DNA of 20,485 nucleotides from Candidatus Heimdallarchaeota archaeon (lineage in GTDB: Archaea; Asgardarchaeota; Heimdallarchaeia; Heimdallarchaeales; Heimdallarchaeaceae): the NCBI GenBank assembly GCA_018238545.1, contig JABCTC010000054.1:1-20485 (forward strand). The letters run 5' to 3'. The notes beneath the pieces were generated by a model that worked only from the letters and a program-made list of their open reading frames with translations, did no database searches and was not told where the DNA came from. The stretch's first letter is position 1. The number at the start of each line of letters is the position of its first letter. Positions 190-13,900 of this stretch are shown here, piece by piece. A program made the position numbers and the translations under genes.

Positions 190-417
190 CTAATATGTAC
201 CAAATATTGTTAAAGTGTTATTAAGAACATCTGTGCGATTTCTTTCAACTTGTTCCTCTAAGCTAAATAAATTGAGAGAACTTTCCTTTTCTGTTGAGGT
301 GATACTACTATTTTGGATGCCCTTTGAAATTTGTTGGAGATATCTCTGTATTAGCTCTCCTTCGAAAGTAACTACTTGTTCAATCATCTTTGTTTTTTGA
401 GATATTGCTGTTGTCAT
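190..417 (-). CDS. Small protein (75 aa) of the wHTH-associated family
   Basis: ATG at 417 is preceded by GAGGTG SD. Resembles the 13259 and 13637 ORFs (FxxELIxxxLxQI; LEEQVERNR...IFGTY). Confidence 0.7.
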   Translation of the reverse strand: MTTAISQKTKMIEQVVTFEGELIQRYLQQISKGIQNSSITSTEKESSLNLFSLEEQVERNRTDVLNNTLTIFGTY

Positions 418-439
418 TTTTAAGCACCTCATGAACAGA

Positions 440-544
440 TTAGAAGAAAGCTCCTCTTAACATTAGATAGGTTTGAAGATTCTTAGTTCTTAATTCAGTC
501 TGCTTGATTTTGTCCTTGTGATTGGTTGGTTTTTTTACGTTCAT
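440..544 (-). CDS. 34-aa small protein MNVKKPTNHKDKIKQTELRTKNLQTYLMLRGAFF (not in ORF track)
   Basis: Manual translation from ATG 544 to TAA 440. AGTGA SD-like motif upstream, lies just downstream of the operator, 22 bp from the next small gene, and the C-terminus resembles LYRGS / LLTGTLF. Confidence 0.6.
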   Translation of the reverse strand: MNVKKPTNHKDKIKQTELRTKNLQTYLMLRGAFF

Positions 545-554
545 TTTAATCACT

Positions 555-571
555 TTCTCTTTCGTTAAGAA
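555..571. promoter_or_regulatory. Operator-like palindrome TTCTC-N7-AAGAA, cassette 1
   Basis: TTCTCTTTCGTTAAGAA; the match to 1817-1841 extends through -ACTATTT. Confidence 0.65.
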
Positions 572-691
572 CACTATTTCAATATATGTTAATAAAGATT
601 TCTTTTTATGTAATTAAAACTAACAACTAGTGAAATTATTAATATCTGTGAATGATAAACCTTATAACAACATATGAAAATATTAGCATGG

Positions 692-1375
692 ATGAGTTTT
701 ACTAACGCTATTGATGAAAATTACAAACCTGAGGCAATAAGAATTATTAGGGCTGAGGCGGTTCATAAGATTCTTGAAGATCCAAATTTTGAGCCAATTA
801 TTGTATCTTTACGCGAAGGTCCTATGACTATAGAAGAAATAACTCGTAGATATAACGCATATGTTGAAGTGATAGGTAGCTCAAATGATTTAACTGACTC
901 TGAAATAAGAAAGAGACAGAAATCTGAGATGACTATTTATCGATATATTAAGGATTTAGAAAATGCAAATATCGTAGTTCAAGCTGGTAGACAAATTGAA
1001 TCTGGAAAAACAACAACAAAGGCATTGTACGGTCGTTCGGCTACTCTTTTCTATCCTTTGCTAAAAACATCTGAATGGTGGGAATCCACAGAAGCTGAAG
1101 AATTTGTGGATGTACAAGTAGAATTACTAAAACTGTATCTTCCTGAATCAAAAGTTTCCAAAACAAAATTAAAACAATTGTTGATCCAACTAGATGCTGA
1201 CGGTGATGCTGTAGGTGCTAAAATCTTTGAAGAGAATAAGGAAAAAGTTTCCAAAATAATCAAGGATCTTACCTTCAAAGAAATTGACAAACATCTGCAA
1301 CGTTTTAGTTACTTAATCACTCTTTTTGAATCTGAACGGTATCTTAAAGATCTTAAAGACTGTTGTGGGGAATAA
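692..1375 (+). CDS. Winged-helix (ArsR/TrmB-like) transcriptional regulator with helical C-terminal domain, paralog 1
   Basis: LREGPMT...TIYRYIKDL...AGRQIESGKT...LYGRSA motif shared with four paralogs. Start moved from 674 to 692: TTATAA at 662-667 fits a leaderless start and the N-terminus aligns with the paralogs. Confidence 0.85.
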   Translation: MSFTNAIDENYKPEAIRIIRAEAVHKILEDPNFEPIIVSLREGPMTIEEITRRYNAYVEVIGSSNDLTDSEIRKRQKSEMTIYRYIKDLENANIVVQAGRQIESGKTTTKALYGRSATLFYPLLKTSEWWESTEAEEFVDVQVELLKLYLPESKVSKTKLKQLLIQLDADGDAVGAKIFEENKEKVSKIIKDLTFKEIDKHLQRFSYLITLFESERYLKDLKDCCGE

Positions 1376-1480
1376 TTTCTCGAAATTCTAATTACTGTGA
1401 AGAAAAAAAGGAAAAGAAATTTTGAAGAAAACAGTATTTTTTGGGGTTTTTGGTGATATCTTTCCCTGTAACCATAATTT

Positions 1481-1738
1481 CTATGTGATGAGAGAAAAAA
1501 CAGTTCCTTTTACGTGACATATGTCACACGGAACCTCTCTTTCTCTCGGGGGTATTTTTCTCTTCACTTGTCTTTTGCTGTGAGTAGTTGTCGCAGAGAT
1601 AGACCGCTCTTTAGCGCGAAGAGACCTTCCATTATTTTTTGAGGAAAAATAAGCATCAGATTCAACAAGATAGAATACGTTAGAAACGTTATCTATCAGA
1701 CTTGTTTCCTGGTTTTTCCGCGATTTGCTCACTGCCAT
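1481..1738 (-). CDS. Small basic protein (85 aa) divergent from the wHTH pair; near-terminal KGTVF and a CxxCH motif
   Basis: AGGTGG SD before ATG 1738, TATA at about 1851-1857 on the minus strand with the operator downstream, T-rich terminator near 1400-1420. Confidence 0.55.
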   Translation of the reverse strand: MAVSKSRKNQETSLIDNVSNVFYLVESDAYFSSKNNGRSLRAKERSISATTTHSKRQVKRKIPPREREVPCDICHVKGTVFSLIT

Positions 1739-1816
1739 ATTTTCCACCTATAACTCAAACATACTGAAGAGTTAGCAAACACAATTTGCTTCCACTGTGT
1801 AAGCTCCTGTGAGATA

Positions 1817-1833
1817 TTCTCATAGGTTAAGAA
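1817..1833. promoter_or_regulatory. Operator-like palindrome TTCTC-N7-AAGAA, cassette 2
   Basis: TTCTCATAGGTTAAGAA, downstream of the minus-strand TATA box (TTATATA at 1857-1851). Confidence 0.65.
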
Positions 1834-1990
1834 TACTATTTATTAAATAATATATAAGGTTTTTGCAAAAAATATGCTTTCTTTCTATAAATTATATCTT
1901 TCAATTCATAATAAAACAATAAATCTTTTAAATGTTTGAGAAAGATAAAAATACATAGAGCAGATTCAGTAGTTAGACAAAGGTTTTATC

Positions 1991-2647
1991 ATGGAAACTC
2001 GCGATTTGATTAGCTTCACTCCAAAAGCTGTTATAGTAATCGATCAGAAGAAGCAGTTCGATTTACTATATCTACCTAAAAATGCGAAGAAGTATAGTCC
2101 TATTCTTTATGTTTTACGTGATGGACCTTTAACCCTTAAGGAACTTGAGTATAAGTACAATACAATTGCTGATGAACCCAAAAAGAAGAACACCATTTAC
2201 AGTTATGTTCAAGATTTAGAAAAAGGTGGATTAGTCACTAAAGCTGGTCAACGTATTTCTCCTGGTCATACTTTTTGTGAATTGTTGTACGATCGCACTG
2301 CTACAATCTTCTATCCTGTTCTTGTTACGGATGAATTCTTCAAATCAAAGGAAGCAACTGCTGCTTTAGAGCAAACACGTAATCTACTTTCTCTCTATCT
2401 GGAGCAACCTGCACCAAATTTCAACAAACTTAAGGATGTCGTTTTTAAAACTTATCAGCATGCTCAAAGATCTGTTGGAGATATTTTCTCGGAGCATAGT
2501 GAAGAAGTTTCAGAAATAACCGCGGATCTCACTTTTTTACAATTAGACAAAATCTGTGGTATTTTTGAAACGTTGATGGCTGTTCTTCATTTTAATGATA
2601 ACTCTGAAGAATTACTGAGTGAACTTAAACTTGGAGGTAAGACATGA
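1991..2647 (+). CDS. Winged-helix transcriptional regulator, paralog 2
   Basis: LRDGPLT...TIYSYVQDL...AGQRISPGHT...LYDRTA. Confidence 0.85.
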   Translation: METRDLISFTPKAVIVIDQKKQFDLLYLPKNAKKYSPILYVLRDGPLTLKELEYKYNTIADEPKKKNTIYSYVQDLEKGGLVTKAGQRISPGHTFCELLYDRTATIFYPVLVTDEFFKSKEATAALEQTRNLLSLYLEQPAPNFNKLKDVVFKTYQHAQRSVGDIFSEHSEEVSEITADLTFLQLDKICGIFETLMAVLHFNDNSEELLSELKLGGKT

Positions 2648-3279
2648 CTACAAAGGATTTTTTAGATGAGAATTACAAAGTTAAACCTTTACAAGTTATT
2701 GATGATAAAGCTCTCATCAACTTATTGAATGATCCCAAATATGCTCCTCTCATGGGAATATTAAGGGAGAAACCATTTACTATTAAAGAGATTCGTAAAA
2801 GATATAATGCTGGTAGAAAAAAGCCAAAAGAAGAGGTTACTATCCGACAATATGTTAAAATTCTAATCGATTCAGGTTTGATAATTAAGGCAGGTCAAAG
2901 CATGACTGCAGGCAAAATAGCTGCAGAGAACCTATATGGTAGTTCTGCTAGATGTTACTTTCCAGTAGTTTTGGCTGAGGATTTTTGGGAATCAGGTGAT
3001 AATCAATTTATCACTGAAAAAGTTCTTCAGTTACTTAATCTTGTAGATACAAAGAAAAAACCTACTATCGAATCCCTTCGAATATTACTTCACTCCATAT
3101 ATTCCAAAACTGAGTTAGAGATTGCTCAAGTTTTTGAAAAATATGAGAAAGAAATAGCTGAAAATCTTTCTAATAGTCCTTTTAACGAGATTCAATATAT
3201 CTCAAACTTCATGATGTTGCTTGTTATGTTAACTAATTCTAGTATCTATAAAAAAGATTTAGAGGATAACTTTTATTAA
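2644..3279 (+). CDS. Winged-helix transcriptional regulator, paralog 3 (translationally coupled to paralog 2)
   Basis: ATGA overlap; LREKPFT...TIRQYVKIL...AGQSMTAGK...LYGSSA. Confidence 0.85.
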   Translation: MTTKDFLDENYKVKPLQVIDDKALINLLNDPKYAPLMGILREKPFTIKEIRKRYNAGRKKPKEEVTIRQYVKILIDSGLIIKAGQSMTAGKIAAENLYGSSARCYFPVVLAEDFWESGDNQFITEKVLQLLNLVDTKKKPTIESLRILLHSIYSKTELEIAQVFEKYEKEIAENLSNSPFNEIQYISNFMMLLVMLTNSSIYKKDLEDNFY

Positions 3280-3343
3280 AGCTATGAGAACTCTTACTCA
3301 AGTCGTTTCTGTATAACGATAAACCATAAAGGATTTGAAGTTT

Positions 3344-4390
3344 ATGAATATTAAACCGTTCGAAGCAAGAAAATTACAAGAGTCTCAATTTCAAGAACTC
3401 TATGATTTGGAATGCTCTGTACATGAAGAAATATTTCCGAACGATCAACACCCAACTTTCAAACTCTGGAAAAATCTCATGCTCCATCCAAACCCTCTGT
3501 ATTCTGTCCACAGATGGATAGCCGTAGCTGATAGAAAAGAGAGAATCCTTGGCTATAGTCGTTTAAGTTATCCTAATGAGAACTCTCCTATGTTTGAAAT
3601 CATGAAAAATACAGCTGATTTTAATATTCTAGTTAAGGAAGATGAACGAAGAAAGGGCGTTGGGAAATCTTTACTCACTCAAATTACAGCTAAATCTGAT
3701 AGTTTGAATCGATTAGTGCTCCAAAATGTGATAAACCACAGCTCTGGAAAAGCTTTTTGTGACCACTTTAACTGTACTGTTGCGTCAGAACGTTCAATTA
3801 ACCGGCTTCATCTTGAAGATGTTAATTGGAAGAAAATGAGAGAATGGGTTGAGCTAGGAAAAATCAAAGCGCCTAATGTCAAGATGAGAACATTTGAAGC
3901 TGTTCCTAAAGATCTTCTAGATGAGTTTTGCATGGTATATACTGTTACTGAGAACCAAGCACCGGATTATGAAACTGGAGATTATCAAGCACTAAGGGTT
4001 ACTCCTGAAAGTAGACGCCTTGATGAGAAGATGTACAAAGATAAGGGGTATGTCTGGACTACAAAATTAGCAGTTGAAGAAAATGGTTCTGTTAGTGGTT
4101 TAACTGAAATATTCTATAATTCCGAAATTCCACATATGGTCGAACAAGAACTAACTGGAGTTATGCCAGAATATAGAGAGAGGGGATTAGGGAAATGGTT
4201 AAAATCCTCTATGGCTTTTTACGTTAAAACAAACTATCCTTCTGTTAAATTCATTCAGACTGGGAATGCCAAAAACAATGAAACAATGAATGCAATAAAC
4301 AAAAGAATGGGTTTCAAACACGTTTGTGACCAATATCTAGTCAAACTAGAATCTAACCTTATAAAAGAAAAATTAAATGTGAAAAAATAG
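3344..4390 (+). CDS. Tandem (two-domain) GNAT family acetyltransferase
   Basis: Two acetyl-CoA binding motif A copies (RRKGVGKSLL; YRERGLGKWLK) and the C-terminal N..M.AINKRMGF motif. Start at ATG 3344 or TTG 3335. Confidence 0.9.
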   Translation: MNIKPFEARKLQESQFQELYDLECSVHEEIFPNDQHPTFKLWKNLMLHPNPLYSVHRWIAVADRKERILGYSRLSYPNENSPMFEIMKNTADFNILVKEDERRKGVGKSLLTQITAKSDSLNRLVLQNVINHSSGKAFCDHFNCTVASERSINRLHLEDVNWKKMREWVELGKIKAPNVKMRTFEAVPKDLLDEFCMVYTVTENQAPDYETGDYQALRVTPESRRLDEKMYKDKGYVWTTKLAVEENGSVSGLTEIFYNSEIPHMVEQELTGVMPEYRERGLGKWLKSSMAFYVKTNYPSVKFIQTGNAKNNETMNAINKRMGFKHVCDQYLVKLESNLIKEKLNVKK

Positions 4391-4393
4391 CTT

Positions 4394-5485
4394 TTAAAGA
4401 TGCTTCTTTAGCCATTCCAGAGGTTGATCAAACACTTCATTTTTTGATGCTTTCCATTCCTTCTTTTGAGAATCATATGAATCACCATAAAAATAGTACA
4501 ACTTGCTCGTATAGTGATCTAATCTGTAAAAATTGAGTTTTTCTGAGATCGACCACAAGAAGTTGCTAAATAGAGATGTATATGATGGCGGTATATTCAT
4601 CCTCCAAATATACCCATCTGAGAGCAAATTGAATCCTGTATCAAATGGTATAGGTGTTTTTTTCAAAGTGTTAAACAGCTTAGTTCTGTTGATTTCTGAG
4701 CACTTTCCTCTAAATAAAACTAGATCCACTGGTTGAACTTTTGCTCTTTTATAAAGCAGAACATAATCATTTACATTTTCATTTAGAAAAGTCATTCTTC
4801 TTGAAATTCTTACAGGTGTAACTTGGAATTTTTCTGCTAGATCATTATGTGCTTGTTTAGCATTAATCGTCATTTCTCTTAATAATTTCAAATCTAGATT
4901 CTGGATCTTATCAAGTACATTTATCTCTTGTTTATTTTCAGCAATAACGGTATCCGAAGCTTTTTCGTAATTTTCTTTCCATGGTTGAATATCCCAAATC
5001 CATTCTCCTTTCTCATTATCATAAAACTCAAATTCAGGAGCAGAACTCGCTTTGAAATCATTTCCTTGAATTTTCTCAAACCCTTCAATTAAGTTTATGT
5101 TTTTTAATTTTATGAATAATGCTTCTAGATATCGAATCGAGTTGTTTGGAATGTTAAATTGTAGAAATAAGCCTTGAGATGCTCCTAAGATTCTATTTCG
5201 ATAGATTGTGAAATCATGGAAGTCAGCAAGTTTTTCAAGTATTTTTAATTTTCTCATTTCTGAAACTTCAACTATAAACGAGACTGTTTCAAGACCAAGC
5301 GTTTCAGGTTTAAATTTAGCTCTGATCCCCTCAATATATCCATTCTTCACTAGATACTGATAATGAGCTTTTGCTGTTTTATCAGTGATGTCTAAAGCTT
5401 CAGCTATCTTTGAGAAGTTAGCTTTTGGATGTTTCTGCAAGAATTGAAAAAGGGAATAATAGGGGATCATAAACCTCAACTGCAT
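4394..5485 (-). CDS. Lrp/AsnC-like regulator with two HTH-RAM-type repeats, paralog A
   Basis: N-terminal HTH (FSKIAEALDITDKTAK), KPETLGL linker, second HTH (DLKLLREM...LAEKFQVTPVRISRR); clearly paralogous to 7478-8584. Confidence 0.8.
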   Translation of the reverse strand: MQLRFMIPYYSLFQFLQKHPKANFSKIAEALDITDKTAKAHYQYLVKNGYIEGIRAKFKPETLGLETVSFIVEVSEMRKLKILEKLADFHDFTIYRNRILGASQGLFLQFNIPNNSIRYLEALFIKLKNINLIEGFEKIQGNDFKASSAPEFEFYDNEKGEWIWDIQPWKENYEKASDTVIAENKQEINVLDKIQNLDLKLLREMTINAKQAHNDLAEKFQVTPVRISRRMTFLNENVNDYVLLYKRAKVQPVDLVLFRGKCSEINRTKLFNTLKKTPIPFDTGFNLLSDGYIWRMNIPPSYTSLFSNFLWSISEKLNFYRLDHYTSKLYYFYGDSYDSQKKEWKASKNEVFDQPLEWLKKHL

Positions 5486-5486
5486 T

Positions 5487-5942
5487 TTATGGAATTGTTA
5501 TTCCAATATAGGGATCTCCTTCACTTCCACCTGGTGGATCAAATACTACCACATCATTTACCGCAAACCAACCATTGTCATTTGTAATTAGAGTTGCTTC
5601 AATTGAATAATCTCCAGGTTCAGTAGCATAATTGTAAAATGTTATTTCTATTGTAACTGTCTTTAGTGATGTTATGATATGCAGAACTATTTCCTCTTGT
5701 TCCCCTATTGGGTTTGTTAGACAGACTTTGAGATAATAGTGTTTTATGTTTGAATCCGTATCGATTGCTATTGTAATTGAAGTAAAGATGTCATATCCTA
5801 TATAGAATGCATCATTGATTGTTACAGAGTGAATCTCGGTTCTCAGTGAGCGATTAGCTTGAACTGAGCTCACTGAATGTGAAATGAATAGTATTGATGT
5901 GAAAAGAAATATCATTGAAATTAAACGAAATTTTTTCATCAT
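5487..5942 (-). CDS. Secreted beta-sandwich (Ig-like) protein with C-terminal FDPPGG motif, paralog A
   Basis: Signal peptide (MMKKFR + hydrophobic + VQA), alternating beta pattern, LTxPxG, NxATExGxY and VFDPPGG shared with 8665-9138. Confidence 0.8.
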   Translation of the reverse strand: MMKKFRLISMIFLFTSILFISHSVSSVQANRSLRTEIHSVTINDAFYIGYDIFTSITIAIDTDSNIKHYYLKVCLTNPIGEQEEIVLHIITSLKTVTIEITFYNYATEPGDYSIEATLITNDNGWFAVNDVVVFDPPGGSEGDPYIGITIP

Positions 5943-6023
5943 AGAAATTTTCCCTAATTCTATTTAAATTTATCTCCGAAATATTTCAAAAAAAAAGAAG
6001 TAGAGAAAACTCTACATAGGTGA

Positions 6024-6824
6024 TTAAAGATAGAAGTCAATCGCAGTATTACCATCAAACTCTTGAGGTGTATCTCCACCATCGAAAGGATAAACAGATG
6101 ATGCATAATCAAATGTTGCTTCCATTGATGCAGTTCCACCTAATTGTCCAATGAGTGTATATTCTAGGAAATAATATGTCCATGCGCCATTTTCGTAAGC
6201 TGTCATATCATATCCATACCCATCATCAGTACAGGTAGTTGTTAAGTAGACTTTGGCTGCGTTTGCATTTAGCATCACTTCATTCATTCCTCCTGCATAG
6301 CAGTGATCTAGAAAGATGAAAGTATTGCTGATTGATGGAGCCATCATACTTTGGAATTCTGAATCATAGATTAATCCATCTTCACCATTTTCTCCTCCAG
6401 AAGTGTCCCACATACACAATACTTGAACATAAATTCTGTCTCTTCTTCGACGAGCACCTATGTTCACTTGAGATCCATGTCCTGAACTTATAAACGCAAC
6501 AATGTCATTTTCATCTGCTTGTGCTATGATTGTTGCCCAAGCGATTTTCACGTTGTATTCAGTTGCTAAACCATCATGTTGAGGATAGTTTGCATGATTT
6601 GAATCTCCTAAAAGTGTAATGTCATATCCTAATGGATTCAAATAGTTATACCAGTCAGTGGCATCCTCATCACAGAAAGAAAGATCACTAATAGCTTTAT
6701 AATCACTAATTCCAATAATTAGTGCGTATTTGTCTACTGGATCTTCCAGACCTTGAACCGATGCTACAGTTGTGACTAATATGACTAAAGTAATGATTCC
6801 AAATAAAAATGCTTTTTTCTTCAT
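6024..6824 (-). CDS. Secreted caspase/metacaspase-like cysteine peptidase (clan CD, C14-like)
   Basis: KYALIIGISDY, SGHG (catalytic His), LDHCYAGG (catalytic Cys), GAWTYY, N-terminal signal peptide. Start at ATG 6824 or GTG 6833. Confidence 0.88.
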   Translation of the reverse strand: MKKKAFLFGIITLVILVTTVASVQGLEDPVDKYALIIGISDYKAISDLSFCDEDATDWYNYLNPLGYDITLLGDSNHANYPQHDGLATEYNVKIAWATIIAQADENDIVAFISSGHGSQVNIGARRRRDRIYVQVLCMWDTSGGENGEDGLIYDSEFQSMMAPSISNTFIFLDHCYAGGMNEVMLNANAAKVYLTTTCTDDGYGYDMTAYENGAWTYYFLEYTLIGQLGGTASMEATFDYASSVYPFDGGDTPQEFDGNTAIDFYL

Positions 6825-6840
6825 TTTACTCACTTTTGTC

Positions 6841-6898
6841 GGGTAAATTTACCCAATTGATAAAATCAGAATATAGCTTATAAGTTTTTTGCAAAAAA
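6841..6898 (-). promoter_or_regulatory. Promoter of the peptidase operon: TATA (6877-6884) with perfect palindromes GGGTAAATTTACCC (6841-6854) and TTTTTTGCAAAAAA (6885-6898)
   Basis: Read directly from sequence; spacing fits BRE-TATA with an operator at the start site. Confidence 0.55.
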
Positions 6899-7195
6899 TC
6901 GGAATATTTCTTGCCCATTCTCCGAAACTTTTCTCATATCTACATGCGCAAAATATCCCCCTACCCTCCTTTGTTTTACTTTCACTACCTTTTCTCAGGA
7001 TCTTCTTAGTTTAGAGTTTCTCCTCTTTTTACGCAATATCGTTGTAAACTTCAATTTTACGTTCTCCTGCAATAATTGACACATATTCACAGTAAGATTG
7101 ACTTGGAACAAATGGAAAATATTTTTATATACGTTTTATAATTGTTCCATAAGAGTGTTTGTCTGTTGTTATCAGTGAAGCGGAGAGCAAGAAAT

Positions 7196-7465
7196 ATGCC
7201 ATCTAAATATATCGTTCCTGTTGATTCTGAAAAAGAAAAGATTGAATACGTCAAAAAGATGTATTGCGAAAATTGCAAAGCGAAAGGAGCGGTAGAGATT
7301 GAGTTTTTCAATGATGTTATTAAAGAAGGATACCATTATGAAGTTGCAAGGTGTATATGTGACCAATGCAATAGTAGTTTTGATGTTAGATTTTTCCCTA
7401 CATCTTCTTGTATCAACAAAAAAATCAAAACTCAAAACGCTAATCTGTCAAACTATTCTTTGTAA
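7196..7465 (+). CDS. Small zinc-ribbon protein (CxxC...CxCxxC)
   Basis: CENC and CICDQC; ATG at 7196 follows GGAG. Confidence 0.7.
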   Translation: MPSKYIVPVDSEKEKIEYVKKMYCENCKAKGAVEIEFFNDVIKEGYHYEVARCICDQCNSSFDVRFFPTSSCINKKIKTQNANLSNYSL

Positions 7466-7477
7466 AAATAGCTTATT

Positions 7478-8584
7478 TTAGATTTCTAATCCAAGTTTTG
7501 AGAGAGGTTCTTTTATCATATATTCTCTTGAGGTTTTCCAGTTTTTATTCTTGAAATCATAGTTCTCATCGTAAAACCAATACTTTCGTGATCCCCTTTC
7601 TTTTGTGTCTAATACATAAACCTCTACATTCTGTAATGTGTTCCAAATTGAAAATGCAAATTCAGATGCTTGTGAAGCGCTCATATTTCCCCACATAAAC
7701 AGATTTGTTCCTTTTAGAATGTCCATTGAAACATGAAATGGTGGAGGGATATCTTTCATAAGATTGTATACCTGATTCTTCCTTTCTGGAGTTACTGATG
7801 ATGCGACGGCTATATATGTCTCAGTCAGATTGAATGATTTTCTGTCAATGAGTAATCTAACTTTATCTACATAGTGATCCATAACATAGTTGTAATGCCG
7901 GTGAGCATCAGTTTTACTAAGATTAAATTTCTCTTTCAACTCGCTTTGTTTCTTTGTAGCATTGGTTGCATTTGACGTAAGCTCTCTTAATATTTTGAAC
8001 TGAATGGGTTTGTAATTGGTATAGGTGCTCTTATCTTCAGTAGTTTTTTCATAAGTAGTGGGATACCTTTTTAATTTTTTGAACCAATTATCCCATGAAA
8101 AATTCCAGGATAAAGTCTCAGAATTAAACCTTTCAAGGTCTGGATAAGAGATTTGTCTCAAACCTGAACTTTCATAAATTCTGAAAGTATTGATATATTT
8201 CTTCTGTTTCAGTACTTGGAAAAATTCTTTTAGTAAATCTAGTGTGTTTGGTGGGATCTCGAATTGCATGTATAAACCAAATGTTCCCCCAAATGTTCTT
8301 GCTCGATATACTGTATATGGATGTGTATCACATGACTCTTCCACTAATTTGATGGAATCTTTTGAGGATATTTCTACTAAAACATGTTTTCTCTCCAACC
8401 CTAAAGTTTCAGGCTTATATAACGCAATTGGTTTTCTAATCATCCCTCTTTCTTTAAGATTATCGAGTCTAACTTTAACAGTAGGTCTAGATAGCTTAAG
8501 TTTTTCAGCAAGTTCTGAGATAGATATGGTAGGATCTTCTATTAATGCTAAAAGCAGCTCCATATCTTTTATATTCATGCCCAT
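7478..8584 (-). CDS. Lrp/AsnC-like regulator with two HTH-RAM-type repeats, paralog B
   Basis: DMELLLALIEDPTISISELAEKLKLSRPTVKVRL is an AsnC-type HTH; KPETLGL linker; second HTH-like repeat. Confidence 0.85.
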   Translation of the reverse strand: MGMNIKDMELLLALIEDPTISISELAEKLKLSRPTVKVRLDNLKERGMIRKPIALYKPETLGLERKHVLVEISSKDSIKLVEESCDTHPYTVYRARTFGGTFGLYMQFEIPPNTLDLLKEFFQVLKQKKYINTFRIYESSGLRQISYPDLERFNSETLSWNFSWDNWFKKLKRYPTTYEKTTEDKSTYTNYKPIQFKILRELTSNATNATKKQSELKEKFNLSKTDAHRHYNYVMDHYVDKVRLLIDRKSFNLTETYIAVASSVTPERKNQVYNLMKDIPPPFHVSMDILKGTNLFMWGNMSASQASEFAFSIWNTLQNVEVYVLDTKERGSRKYWFYDENYDFKNKNWKTSREYMIKEPLSKLGLEI

Positions 8585-8664
8585 AACTCTAACCTACATC
8601 TTCTAAATCATTTATTCAAATAATCAACCAATTTGTTACGTACTTCTTTAATAAAGACATTTTG

Positions 8665-9138
8665 TTAATAATACAAACCTATGTTAGGGACCTCTCCATT
8701 GTCTCCACCAGGTGGATCAAAAACACATCTATCATATGCTGTTATTCCCCATGCAACTATGGTTCCTCTTATTGAAGTTGTATACCATCCAGATTCTGTC
8801 GCATGATTGAAGTAAACTAACATCGCATCTGTTTCTTCATCAATAAGTTTCATTTTCAATTTGTAAACATATGTTAGTCCTGAAGGGAGTGTTAATTCTA
8901 CTTCTAGAGAGAGGATTATGGTTGCAGAATCAGAAAAATCATCTTCAAATTCCACTTCAAATTCAACAATAACGTCATTCTCTCCTCCTGAATTGTCAAA
9001 ATCCATGTAGTATGTTTTTTCAATGTCTATATCCAACTCTGCATCAACATCACCCGCCATAACTCCCGCAGAGCTTGCTGTTAACACAAATAAGAAAATT
9101 GTACCAAACAGGTATTTTAATTTCTTACTGTTGTTCAT
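8665..9138 (-). CDS. Secreted acidic beta-sandwich protein with FDPPGG motif, paralog B
   Basis: Signal peptide, DFDNSGGEND Ca-loop-like motif, LTLPSG, NHATESGWY, VFDPPGG. Confidence 0.8.
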   Translation of the reverse strand: MNNSKKLKYLFGTIFLFVLTASSAGVMAGDVDAELDIDIEKTYYMDFDNSGGENDVIVEFEVEFEDDFSDSATIILSLEVELTLPSGLTYVYKLKMKLIDEETDAMLVYFNHATESGWYTTSIRGTIVAWGITAYDRCVFDPPGGDNGEVPNIGLYY

Positions 9139-9181
9139 TATAGAACAATAAGTAACATGTTTATTAAAAGTTGGGAAAAAA

Positions 9182-9193
9182 GGTAAATTTATC
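9182..9193. promoter_or_regulatory. Near-palindrome GGTAAATTTATC upstream of the TATA box of 8665-9138
   Basis: 11/12 match to GGTAAATTTACC at 6842-6853. Confidence 0.4.
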
Positions 9194-9501
9194 GCATATT
9201 TGTTTTCATTAATTTCAATTTTGCATTATGATTTAATGCAGTGAACTTAATGTCATCTATCTTTAACCATTTAAAACCCCTTTAAACGTCCTTCTATTGA
9301 ATTTTATCTAGCTTTCCTTTTCCCTTGTATTTTCCGCCTTCACTGGTTTATGTACTGCAACACAATACCCTTGTATTACATTTTTAATGAAATTTCTCAA
9401 AAAACCTCAGTTTTTTCAAGCGACCTCGTGGGTTTTTGTTCAAACATTGAATTTATTATCCTCAAGGCAAAATATCGATTAAGAGTATTTTTGGTGATAA
9501 T

Positions 9502-10377
9502 ATGTTTAGTGTTGCTAGTTTCCTAATCACATTGAGAGAAACAATTGAAGTTGCTTTGATTATAGGTATAATTTTAACTTATGTCATCAAAGTGAAGCAA
9601 GATAGACTTAAGCGAGATATCTGGATAGGAACAGTTCTGGGAATTGTTCTTTCGATCGGATTTGGTATTCTATTCAGTTTTGTATTAGGTAGTTTTGAAG
9701 ATTATGAAAATATTATTGAAGGTTTTTCAATGATTCTAGCAGCTATTTTAATGACTTGGATGATCATTTGGATGAGAGAAACTGGTAGAGATTACCAAAA
9801 GAACCTTGAATCAAAAATTGAAGTAACTATTAAAAATGAACATCGCTTTGGATTAATAGCTTTAGCTTTTATTTCAGTTCTGCGAGAAGGCATAGAAACA
9901 GTAATTTTTCTTACAGGTGTTGAATCAGTAGATGAAACTCCTATGGATATTCTATGGTCTGGTCTAATTGGAATTTTTGTAGCACTTATTTTGGCATTGA
10001 TTCTTTTCTTAAGTAGTAAAAAAATAAACCTAAAACTTTTCTTTAGTGTTACAGGTATATTTCTAATATTATTTGCAGCTGGAATGCTTTCACATGGTTT
10101 CCACGAACTTCAAGATATCGGATGGTTTGGTAATGAAAATAATTTCTTACAAACAATTGTTTGGGATACAAGTTCATTATTAAATGACAAAACCTCGGAA
10201 TTAGGGAAGTTTCTTAGAACACTCTTTGGGTATCAGGATCAGCCAACATGGTTAGAAGTCATCTCATATTTCGGCTACTACTTTTTACTGACTATTCTTT
10301 TCTTACTAGTGAAAATATTGAAGAAGAATAAACAAAACAAAGATAAAACAACAATGTTGAAAACTGAATCTGTTTAG
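9502..10377 (+). CDS. FTR1/EfeU family high-affinity iron permease
   Basis: Two RExxE motifs (RETIE, REGIE), multiple TM helices, HELQ and LFGY...P motifs; GGTGA SD. Confidence 0.93.
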   Translation: MFSVASFLITLRETIEVALIIGIILTYVIKVKQDRLKRDIWIGTVLGIVLSIGFGILFSFVLGSFEDYENIIEGFSMILAAILMTWMIIWMRETGRDYQKNLESKIEVTIKNEHRFGLIALAFISVLREGIETVIFLTGVESVDETPMDILWSGLIGIFVALILALILFLSSKKINLKLFFSVTGIFLILFAAGMLSHGFHELQDIGWFGNENNFLQTIVWDTSSLLNDKTSELGKFLRTLFGYQDQPTWLEVISYFGYYFLLTILFLLVKILKKNKQNKDKTTMLKTESV

Positions 10378-10697
10378 TAATTCCTGCGGTAGATGCTAGT
10401 ATATTTTGTTTTATACGTCCCTTCATCCAATTTGTCTGATTCTTTTGGCCATTGATAAACTTCTAAAGGAGTTTCACATTTTCCACAAACTATCTCTGTT
10501 TGTTCTGGTAGACCTTTGTCATTGTACAAAAAATTAATTTTAATTGAATGATCACAGATATAATCAGTCTTACAAAAAGGGCAATGATGATAATCGTAGT
10601 TGTTCAAAACTGTAGGTTTGAGTATTGCTACTGGACAGTAGCAGGCATTCACCGTTTTTTTACAATCACAAAGCAAATGGTGCGCTATTTCTGTCAT
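10374..10697 (-). CDS. Small Cys/His-rich putative metal-binding protein
   Basis: CxC, CxC, HHCPFC, CxH and CxxC motifs. Confidence 0.65.
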   Translation of the reverse strand: MTEIAHHLLCDCKKTVNACYCPVAILKPTVLNNYDYHHCPFCKTDYICDHSIKINFLYNDKGLPEQTEIVCGKCETPLEVYQWPKESDKLDEGTYKTKYTSIYRRNY

Positions 10698-10814
10698 CGA
10701 AACGTCTAGAATGTACCTATATTTATATTTAACTTAAAAATAAACACTTTTCTAGAGAATTTTGGGTTCCTAAGCAATATTATTAGTTCGTTTTTATGTT
10801 TATTTACCTTAAAT

Positions 10815-11390
10815 CTACAACTCGAAAGCATTTATTTCATCAAGAAGCTCATAAGTTTTGCCAACTGCTTCATGTACTTGTTTCTCACTTTTTCCACCTG
10901 TACAAACTAAATTTCCAGATTGAAATAATAGTAGAACATTCTTAGGTTCTTGTAATCGAAAAATAAGTCCTGGGAACTGTTCAGGTTCATACATGCTATT
11001 GTCTAGCCAAAGTGCTATTAGTTCAAGATTCAATCTTTTATTGTTGAAATTACCTGAAGCAACAATGTTTTGGATAACAATTTCAGGTTCCTCTGTAATT
11101 ATTACGCCCACTTTTTTCAATATTTTAGATATAACTTCTACTCCAATTCTTACATTTTCAGTAGATTTTGCCCCAGTCAATACGAGTTTTCCTGAACTAA
11201 ATACCAGACTTGAAACTTTAGGTTTCTTAATTTTTAAAATCACTCCTGGAAATTTGTCCGGATAAAAACTTATGTCAACTGCATCATCATCTATTAGATT
11301 CTGATACATTTCTACTAATTCAATCGTTGTAAACAAATTTATTGAAGCAACAATATTTTGAACTGTTATATCAAATTCAGGTTTTTTCAT
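10815..11390 (-). CDS. tbp: TATA-box binding protein
   Basis: Two repeats: QNIVAS...FPG...LVFSSGKLVLTGAKS and QNIVAS...YEPEQFPGLIFR...LFQSGNLVCTGGKS. Confidence 0.97.
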   Translation of the reverse strand: MKKPEFDITVQNIVASINLFTTIELVEMYQNLIDDDAVDISFYPDKFPGVILKIKKPKVSSLVFSSGKLVLTGAKSTENVRIGVEVISKILKKVGVIITEEPEIVIQNIVASGNFNNKRLNLELIALWLDNSMYEPEQFPGLIFRLQEPKNVLLLFQSGNLVCTGGKSEKQVHEAVGKTYELLDEINAFEL

Positions 11391-11558
11391 GTTATCTCTG
11401 TGTCCTTGTACCTATAAATTCAAATATTCCTTATTTTTGAGCATGTAAGTATTTTGATATATCATCTATTTTAACCTTTGATGATTTGCTTAAGAATACC
11501 CCTAACAACTGATTAACATTCAAGCTCTTGGAACCAAAAAAAAGATCACAAATCTTTT

Positions 11559-12245
11559 TTATCGTTTGCTAATTACTTTGTCTACCATTTCTTTATATTT
11601 TCCAGAATTTAGTGCCAAATATAAGATTCGAAATATATAGAGAATTCTATCTGAATCTGTAAAGGTAATGTCGCTAAATATTTCTTGAACTTCTTCTTTT
11701 TTTTCTTCGAACACTCGAAAGAGTTCAGATTCAGAATCAGCTTCAATTTTAGCCATAATTTCTGCTAGTTTTTCTGGTTTTGGTGGTTTTATATCTCTAG
11801 ATAGCGATAACAATTCTGATGCTTTTGATAAATGTTTCATACAGATGTTGCATCTCCAATTGTCATCTTCCAAATTTTTAAGGTAAAAAATTTTAGCTGT
11901 TCTTACATATAGAATTTCGGTTGCTGTCTTTCCCATGACAACCCTATGACCAGCAGGCGCAACTAAACCTATTTTTGTTAATTCTTTGATATACCTGTAA
12001 ATTGATTTATCGGAACGTTCTAGATTTTCTAACTCTTTCTTACTCAATCCTCTCTCTGACCCTTTTGTTTTCACTATTTCATTGTATTTATTTTCTATAT
12101 CCTTTACTGTCATAGGTCCAGATCGAAGAACCCAGAAAATGGGCGCATAGCTCTCATCATAAAAAATTTTCACTAATTTTGGATCTCGTACAACTCTTAC
12201 TTCCTCTTGCTTAATACTTTCATCAAGTATATCTTTGTGTCCCAT
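11559..12245 (-). CDS. Winged-helix transcriptional regulator, paralog 4
   Basis: LRSGPMT...SIYRYIKEL...AGHRVVMGKTATEILYVRTA; AGGTGA SD before ATG 12245. Confidence 0.85.
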   Translation of the reverse strand: MGHKDILDESIKQEEVRVVRDPKLVKIFYDESYAPIFWVLRSGPMTVKDIENKYNEIVKTKGSERGLSKKELENLERSDKSIYRYIKELTKIGLVAPAGHRVVMGKTATEILYVRTAKIFYLKNLEDDNWRCNICMKHLSKASELLSLSRDIKPPKPEKLAEIMAKIEADSESELFRVFEEKKEEVQEIFSDITFTDSDRILYIFRILYLALNSGKYKEMVDKVISKR

Positions 12246-12377
12246 ATTATAATTCACCTATTTTTGTCGAATGAAACTTGTGGTGTGTAGTTAAGGATAC
12301 TCTAATTGAATTTGAGTTTTGAACAGAAAATACAGGAGAATAATTGAAAAACGTATTAAATAGCTCTTCCTCAATTA

Positions 12378-13055
12378 TCATTCTTCAAAACACTCCCCGA
12401 GATTCTTTTTGCTTTGCTCTGAATAAAGCATTGATGCAATATTAATAATGCTTAATAGTTTCTTAGATTCCTCAAATCCTCCCTCTGTAAGGATTTTTGA
12501 AACTTCATCATATTTCTTATTAAGTGCTTCATAAAGATAGTTGTTTCCGGAATTAAGTAGCTCTATCATTCGTTTACTGAAGCAATTAAGATCTAATTTT
12601 TGAACCCCTTCTACAGCTTGTATAATTCTCGCTGATCTTTGAATTATCGTCTCTCCGTCACTCTCTTCCCACCATCTATCTTCGATGTTAAGTAAGAAAA
12701 CTTTAGCGGCACGACTGTAGAGATTTTCAGTAGCGGTCTTACCTATCACTAACCTTTGTCCTGACAGTACAACTAATTCCAAATCAGTTAGTTCTTTGAT
12801 ATACCGATAAATGGTTTTCTCTGAACGTTTCATTTTCTCAAACGCATCTTTAGGTATATCCATTTTTATTGCTCTCTTTTTTACAATCTCGTTATACTGT
12901 TTTGTAATTTGCTTAACTGTCATTGGTCCTTCCTTGAGGGCAGATATAACTGGAAAATAGGCCATATCTGAAAATACCTTAATTAATTCTTTATCTTCAA
13001 TAACCCAAACATCTTTTTGTTTAATTTCATCGTTCATTATATCTTGATATCCCAT
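12378..13055 (-). CDS. Winged-helix transcriptional regulator, paralog 5
   Basis: LKEGPMT...TIYRYIKEL...SGQRLVIGKTATENLYSRAA; ATG 13055 follows GGTGA and aligns with the paralog 4 start (MGYQDI / MGHKDI). Confidence 0.85.
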   Translation of the reverse strand: MGYQDIMNDEIKQKDVWVIEDKELIKVFSDMAYFPVISALKEGPMTVKQITKQYNEIVKKRAIKMDIPKDAFEKMKRSEKTIYRYIKELTDLELVVLSGQRLVIGKTATENLYSRAAKVFLLNIEDRWWEESDGETIIQRSARIIQAVEGVQKLDLNCFSKRMIELLNSGNNYLYEALNKKYDEVSKILTEGGFEESKKLLSIINIASMLYSEQSKKNLGECFEE

Positions 13056-13154
13056 ACTCACTTTCACCAATTTCGTTGTCACTAATATTTAACTCACAAC
13101 CTTTAATAAACGTTTCCGTCTATCAAAGAAGGCGTTCTCATGATTTGGAACTCA

Positions 13155-13237
13155 TTCTCGCTTTAAGAGATATGTTTATATATTGATGAGAGAGAATATT
13201 CTCGGACACAGAGAAACAGTGTCTCACTCAATAAGAA
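13155..13237. promoter_or_regulatory. Operator array of cassette 3 (three TCTC-N7-RAGA sites) around the TATA box at 13175-13182
   Basis: TTCTCGCTTTAAGAGAT (13155-13171), TTCTCGGACACAGAGAA (13199-13215), GTCTCACTCAATAAGAA (13221-13237). Confidence 0.7.
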
Positions 13238-13258
13238 AAACCAAGAGGTAAAATCAAA

Positions 13259-13519
13259 ATGGCAGTAAAATTAGAACAAAAAAATGAACTGTTAAAAAAT
13301 TTCAATGCTCTGAAAGCATTGTATAATCTCGAATTTGTTGAAGAAGAGGACTTAAGCGACCTCTTAAACCAGCTAGCAGAGAACATGTATAACAATAACA
13401 CAGATCTCAGCAAAGTGTATCCTGATATGAAACATTATCAAAACTATCGCCTTAAGCAATCCGTAGAAAACGATAGAAATCGTTCTCTCTCGAAACTCGT
13501 ATTGTACAGAGGTTCTTAA
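13259..13519 (+). CDS. Small protein (86 aa) of the wHTH-associated family
   Basis: GAGGT SD; paralogous to 13637-13900 (KxELxxxFxxL...F.EE...LL.QLA...); ends LYRGS. Confidence 0.8.
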   Translation: MAVKLEQKNELLKNFNALKALYNLEFVEEEDLSDLLNQLAENMYNNNTDLSKVYPDMKHYQNYRLKQSVENDRNRSLSKLVLYRGS

Positions 13520-13636
13520 CTTTAACTTATTCTTTTTCATACAATGAAATCAGTAGGACGAACATCACAACTTGTGTTAACAAGTAGTGAGTAACTATTA
13601 ATAAATCTCAAGTGAGAAAAAATATGAGGTGGTTTC

Positions 13637-13900
13637 ATGATTAATAAAACCGATAAAAAAGAAGAGTTGATAAGATCTTTCCAAAATCTTACAAAAATCA
13701 AACATTACACCTTTAAGGATGAAGAGTTAATCCTATCCCTCTTAGATAAGTTAGCATCATCCTTGTTTGGGTCAAAATATGATTATTGTTCAACACCTGA
13801 ATACAATGAACACTGTAAAAATATCATCAAAGAAGATCTAAAAAGAGAGAAAGAAAAATATCTTGTTACAAAAGTATTATTGACTGGAACATTATTCTGA
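13637..13900 (+). CDS. Small protein (87 aa) of the wHTH-associated family
   Basis: GAGGTGG SD; ends LLTGTLF; T-rich tract follows. Confidence 0.8.
   Translation: MINKTDKKEELIRSFQNLTKIKHYTFKDEELILSLLDKLASSLFGSKYDYCSTPEYNEHCKNIIKEDLKREKEKYLVTKVLLTGTLF

Follow-up and report, generated by a model that had tools for sequence, protein, structure and literature searches.

Repressors of the PadR, MarR and ArsR types are one-component regulators that stand divergently to the efflux and detoxification genes they control. Archaeal ArsR regulators resembling PH1932 dimerize through their C-terminal domain and have a possible effector cavity. Regulators with linked short peptide genes include the RRNPP sensors (Rgg/SHP, PlcR/PapR and Rap/Phr), in which a TPR-type domain binds an exported and processed pro-peptide. 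In Bacillus the repressor SinR is encoded beside the small protein SinI, an antagonist homologous to its oligomerization domain. PH1932 itself comes from Pyrococcus horikoshii (PDB codes 1ULY and 2CWE; Itou et al. 2008, PMID 18076033, cited in PMC4486848). Our searches of the accessible literature returned no operator, target or ligand for PH1932, and almost nothing on the regulons of Asgard archaea.

The locus described here lies in a window of 20,485 nucleotides, which is the entire contig C56 of a 3.6-Mb Candidatus Heimdallarchaeota genome. Five regulator genes and five small genes, named below by their first coordinate, were verified at the coordinates and strands of Table 1, so that the three divergent cassettes of the original prediction are all present. 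The ratio of regulators to small genes varies between the units (1:2, 2:1 and 2:2).

Table 1. Coordinates of the regulators, small-protein genes and promoter elements of the three divergent units.
Feature	Position	Strand	Remarks
Small protein type C, 75 aa	190..417	-	Helix-Gly family; evolves fast
Small protein type D, 34 aa	440..544	-	Basic C-terminal helix-Gly module only
Putative operator palindrome, 440/190 unit	555..571	.	25 nt past TATA-like box 589-596 (minus strand)
Regulator 1, PH1932-like wHTH	692..1375	+	
Small protein type E, 85 aa	1481..1738	-	Most divergent member
Putative operator palindrome, 1481	1817..1833	.	25 nt past TATA box 1851-1858 (minus strand)
Regulator 2, PH1932-like	1991..2647	+	Recognition helix altered
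Regulator 3, PH1932-like	2644..3279	+	Start overlaps regulator 2 stop
Regulator 4, PH1932-like	11559..12245	-	Structure modeled
Regulator 5, PH1932-like	12378..13055	-	
Promoter of 13259	13155..13237	.	Four elements: weak site 13155-13171; TATA 13175-13182; putative main operator 13199-13215; second site 13221-13237
Small protein type A, 86 aa	13259..13519	+	Acidic N-terminal helical hairpin and C-terminal helix-Gly module
Second regulatory motif CACAAnTTGTG, doubled, 13-bp period	13566..13589	+	Directly upstream of TATA-like box
Small protein type B, 87 aa	13637..13900	+	Paralog of 13259

Several other genes share the window. A second paralog of TBP (10815-11390, minus strand; the genome has two TBPs) sits directly downstream of the regulator pair 12378/11559 on the same strand and is possibly co-transcribed with it; found in three close species and missing at that spot in others, it looks like a recent insertion. 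A two-gene unit is duplicated on the minus strand (4394-5942 and 7478-9138) and comprises a protein of 150-160 aa with a signal-like N-terminus followed by an AsnC-type double-HTH regulator of 363-368 aa. A caspase-domain protein (Peptidase_C14), also with a signal-like N-terminus, is encoded at 6024-6833 (minus strand), and two Cys-rich proteins, each about 100 aa long and unmatched in Pfam, at 7142-7465 (plus strand) and 10374-10697 (minus strand), the latter adjoining the regulator cluster throughout the genus.

The five regulators are paralogs, with 29-32% identity to 692. A conserved winged helix-turn-helix (wHTH) followed by a more variable, all-helical C-terminal domain had been read from the sequence, and both the alignment and the structure model of 11559 (pLDDT 93) bear this out. 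The model retrieves PH1932 with a Foldseek E-value of 1.5e-9 and a VIA Z-score of 13.8 over 183 residues (model residues 13-227), the next chain having a Z-score of 9.1. The regulator HMM matches PH1932 with an E-value of 2e-11, positions 12-206 of the profile covering residues 3-185 and hence both domains. Model and fold matches place an ArsR-type winged helix at the N-terminus, and the HMM span and the VIA alignment establish homology of the C-terminal helical domain with that of PH1932. The five proteins are full-length PH1932 homologs, one-component regulators with an ArsR-type wHTH and a helical C-terminal domain. This homology refutes the view that no described family has such an architecture, and novelty is limited to the wiring and the family of small proteins. 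Likeness in fold and full-length homology notwithstanding, the Asgard regulators differ from PH1932 in sequence (about 20% identity), in an insertion before the recognition helix and in their expansion into paralogs. The invariant and 90%-conserved columns of 52 regulators contain no Cys or His; with the conserved metal sites of ArsR/SmtB proteins missing, these are not classical metal-sensing ArsR proteins. The recognition helices of 1991 and 2644 are altered, and these two regulators may not bind the site shared by the others. Seven regulators are encoded in this genome, five of them in the window, and some genomes of the genus have 7-13. The family is widespread in Asgard archaea, with matches in 181 of 300 genomes, many of them weak, and strong matches in several families. 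One clade is longer (270-310 aa, against the usual 210-230; L035:5946-6776 and its orthologs).

The small ORFs appear mostly to be real coding genes. They are preceded by Shine-Dalgarno-like sites (weak for 440) and have orthologs in other species in which the frame is kept. The dN/dS values of 0.12-0.57 for 13259, 13637, 440 and 1481, against 0.10-0.39 for the regulators, point to purifying selection on four of the five; that of 190 is 0.95 in a single comparison. The values leave aside one pair for a 32-aa orphan gene, whose coordinates were wrong. By profile alignment, type A (13259) joins type B (13637) at 99.7% and type C (190) at 97.7%, type D (440) aligns through its C-terminus at 60-74%, and type E (1481) aligns only weakly. 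The last is the weakest member; both the N-terminal hairpin and the Gly tail are retained in its orthologs in other species. Together the five small proteins belong to one new, lineage-restricted family of 32-90 residues. Its common element is an amphipathic, usually basic C-terminal helix ending in hydrophobic-x-Gly-(S/T)-hydrophobic, in which the Gly is invariant in 36 aligned proteins and is followed by a variable tail of 0-7 residues. Long forms add an acidic helical hairpin, members of 32-40 aa retain the helix-Gly module only, and the two modules also occur separately. The modeled structure is all-helical. The 36 members share no consistent Pfam family, no sequence match was found in the PDB, and searches of structures and of a feature atlas gave no usable match. 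Comparison with HbYX proteasome tails, WH2, ArfA, the PIP box and IQ motifs was likewise abandoned, as spacing and tail variability do not fit and Pfam gives no support. Helix-Gly genes share operons with another family of small proteins, about 50 aa long, which have a zipper-like helix, then an Arg-rich stretch and often a Gly end (L049:4713-4868; L156:2508-2675; L160:1524-1718).

The prediction that all three divergent promoters carry one motif is upheld by an exact match in each gap. Each of the three divergent gaps holds one copy of the palindrome TTCTYR-N5-YRAGAA, which is found nowhere else in the window, and the looser pattern TTCTY-N7-RAGAA has exactly three matches in the 20.5 kb, at the same places; the chance mean is 0.6 and three matches were reached in 1 of 100 shuffles, for a pattern derived partly from the three sites on which it was counted. 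The consensus from relatives is TTCTCA-N5-TGAGAA. The palindrome lies 24-25 nt downstream of the TATA box of the small gene, a distance at which a site in archaea covers the transcription start, and this indicates the geometry of a repressor. A composite of TATA box and palindrome occurs 48 times in 23 of 30 genomes, mostly beside regulator genes, against 7 reversed controls, a count that is partly circular given that the pattern was taken from these same genomes. Alone, the motif shows no genome-wide enrichment (48 matches, 57-58 in shuffles), so its significance rests on position and conservation. The length of its spacer follows the recognition helix of the regulator: where that helix carries YRY, 5 bp is the usual length, 6 bp prevails in the YKY clade, and the YRH clade has 7 bp. 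This covariation is the best evidence that the regulators read the palindrome, to which they would bind. The palindrome also stands upstream of members of the regulator family in distant lineages and outgroup families that have no small genes. Its presence where small genes are missing, together with the match between spacer and recognition helix, makes it the probable operator of the entire PH1932-like regulator family. With the palindrome over the predicted start site and conserved across two genera, the proposal that the regulators control the small genes is supported. In all likelihood the duplicated regulators act on the small genes through one shared palindromic operator.

The small-protein family has a much narrower distribution than the regulators. 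In two genera, both with multiple regulator paralogs, it is present in 20 of 21 and in 2 of 2 genomes; the search of other genera, which took in two single-contig genomes from the same taxonomic family, found no member. A search of a representative library gave 44 matches, all but one to short proteins. This genome has at least nine small genes, three of the nine not beside a regulator. Among 139 regulator sequences, whose neighbor counts are not independent, a small gene stands opposite 51 and a large gene, in some cases an MFS pump, opposite 32; a further 29 are second in a tandem, and the remainder are truncated or have no divergent gene. At 20 further regulator loci from four other Asgard families no small gene of this family is a neighbor. 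The linkage is strong, though not exclusive, and most sampled Asgard regulators have no partner. The cassettes are stably syntenic on chromosomes across the genus; in two species the type-E promoter and its regulators persist although the small gene is missing. In a quick regulator tree with a weak backbone, the small-protein subtype (A, C, E and a 34-aa MFS-linked type) follows the regulator clade, as joint duplication predicts. Regulators of the clades linked to small genes show no residue signature (184 of 500 permutations were as strong) and no clear charge difference. In a third genus, short Lys-rich ORFs lie under the same combination of TATA box and operator. In another Heimdallarchaeia family, a regulator pair faces a protein of 77-88 aa that resembles a small HTH protein and not a helix-Gly gene (L210:2007-2273; L211:2055-2309; L213:2098-2331).

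Small genes are also found under two other promoter systems. A doubled CACAAnTTGTG is common to the upstream regions of 13637 and of orphan small genes of 32-40 aa; its 72 occurrences, spread over 24 of 30 genomes, compare with 1 control. It ends about 10 nt short of a TATA-like box, which is the geometry of an activator site. A search with this DNA motif alone recovered new small genes. With an upstream element of its own, 13637 is probably more than a second gene in the 13259 unit, contrary to what had been assumed. Of 20 such sites read, 9 precede small genes, 7 a bactofilin-domain gene, 3 an intact MFS pump and one apparently the remnant of an MFS pump. An S9 peptidase seemed at one point to be co-regulated, but what is conserved at those sites is the bactofilin-domain gene on the divergent side; the link is an artifact of its promoter, and the peptide-processing reading drawn from it was dropped. 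On contig C29 of the same genome (L162:3063-4666) a bactofilin-domain gene and then a 100-aa HTH_45 gene lie under CACAAnTTGTG, and the latter may encode the factor recognizing this motif. Just downstream of a 32-aa orphan on contig C38 is a gene that by eye resembles a cold-shock protein (L165:2454-2657). In the third context, A-type genes belong to small-gene operons that face an unrelated zinc-finger family of about 150 aa (CxxC-HxC) and carry other promoter repeats. This family is undescribed; an example is on contig C115 of the same genome (L049:3703-5152), and lineage-specific repeats flank the TATA box.

We propose that the small proteins are the regulated output of these circuits, docking on a shared partner, and are not feedback elements, a reading to which we assign a probability of roughly 0.55. 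Phylogenetic footprinting strongly suggests that PH1932-type regulators bind TTCTCA-N5-TGAGAA; positioned over the predicted transcription start, they would repress the divergent small genes, and additional sites lying immediately before the TATA box could have a modulating or activating effect. The inducer is probably a small molecule or a stress cue, as in sister clades that stand opposite large genes, MFS pumps included; the variable C-terminal domain would read it, and derepression would follow. The small proteins would serve as modular adaptors whose conserved, mostly basic amphipathic C-terminal helix and Gly cap dock on one partner in the cell. As the family appears to be wired also to the factor behind CACAAnTTGTG and to the zinc-finger family, several signals may converge on it. 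The co-regulated pumps and oxidoreductases give only a hint of a stress or xenobiotic response. Output fits best since one module stands under three promoter systems, is dispensable at some regulators and is absent from most lineages that bear regulators. Two points speak against it, both of which feedback would predict as well: several separate regulator clades have a small-gene neighbor, and the regulators and the small proteins have expanded in the same genera. In layout the units resemble divergent PadR, MarR or ArsR-type repressors, with a wHTH facing its target, a palindrome over the start and sister clades facing MFS pumps; they differ in that the first target in many clades is a tiny protein of a new family.

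Feedback of the small proteins on the regulators across the family is a possibility that we hold doubtful, kept in play by the recurrence of the pairing in several clades and by the Lys-rich ORFs of the third genus under the same operator. A network of intracellular peptide switches, in which cis-linked and orphan helical proteins alike bind the regulator C-terminal domain and release the DNA, is an equally tentative idea. In the specific form of family-wide anti-repressors or co-regulators, which seems rather unlikely, the C-terminal helix would bind a conserved surface of any PH1932-type paralog and free the operator; this would imply positive feedback and make the CACAAnTTGTG-driven orphans inputs of cross-talk. 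Such anti-repressors would suit the confinement of the small family to genera with multiple regulator paralogs, as well as the two points just given. They sit poorly with the partnerless regulators of four other sampled Asgard families, the missing residue signature in partnered clades, the loss of the partner in some species and the lack of similarity between the small proteins and the regulator C-terminal domain. Described systems offer partial analogies. Like SinI, the small proteins are encoded beside a repressor, but the layout here is divergent, the fold is different and no mimicry of the C-terminal domain is detectable; a SinI-like resemblance suggested by eye was rejected, with HHalign probabilities below 1%, E-values of 0.07-0.36 and 2 of 40 shuffles scoring as high. 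Linked and orphan short peptide genes recall RRNPP systems, but no TPR domain is among the fold matches, PH1932 homology accounts for the C-terminal domain, and the peptides are charged helices in which inspection revealed no secretion signal and no hydrophobic signal segment, and nothing points to their export or re-import.

The original prediction had favored paralog-specific anti-repressor or ligand pairs, and these are so far unsupported: the conserved small-protein element is common to all partners, the small proteins also occur under two other promoter systems, most sampled regulators have no partner, and a partner was lost twice while the promoter was retained. Strict cognate pairs, in which each small protein binds the variable C-terminal domain of its neighbor, would explain why subtype follows clade, but joint duplication of the cassette does so as well, and gene counts per unit vary. 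Since one operator is common to all paralogs and leaves little room for independent switches, cognate pairing is the least favored form of feedback and quite improbable.

The invariant Gly with its variable tail could also mark precursors cut after this residue, as Pup- or ubiquitin-like tags or processed peptide signals. We consider this very improbable: the model is all-helical, the single Gly is followed by a tail whose S/T-hydrophobic pattern is itself conserved, in keeping with a helix cap, there is no C-terminal GG, GGE or GG[EQ], inspection shows no signal peptide, genes for a ligase or protease do not recur next to the small genes, and no conjugation enzyme was noted in the small-gene loci read. 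Toxin-antitoxin-like or mobile modules, suggested by small genes beside an autoregulator and a nearby ParB gene, are the most improbable of all, given the divergent and not co-transcribed genes (type II systems differ in this), the stable chromosomal synteny across the genus, the free-standing copies, the absence of a recognizable toxin family and the lack of relatives of the small family in viral contigs.

A divergent wHTH with its operator over the target start is ordinary logic, and the regulator fold is known. In the searchable literature we found no description of the operator, of the second motif or of the small-protein family. The analysis supplies archaeal regulators of the PH1932 class with a specific operator, open to testing, whose spacer varies with residues of the recognition helix, and it brings to light a second Asgard promoter motif with a small regulon of its own. 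It also adds a new small-protein family whose members of 32-40 residues are easily missed by gene callers; orphans of 33 residues can be synthesized, so that a search for the partner is a direct experiment. Should the partner be the regulator, this would be a new kind of archaeal peptide switch. It would give a protein ligand to a regulator family for which we found none described, and would place the logic of Rap/Phr or SinI on an unrelated fold in archaea.
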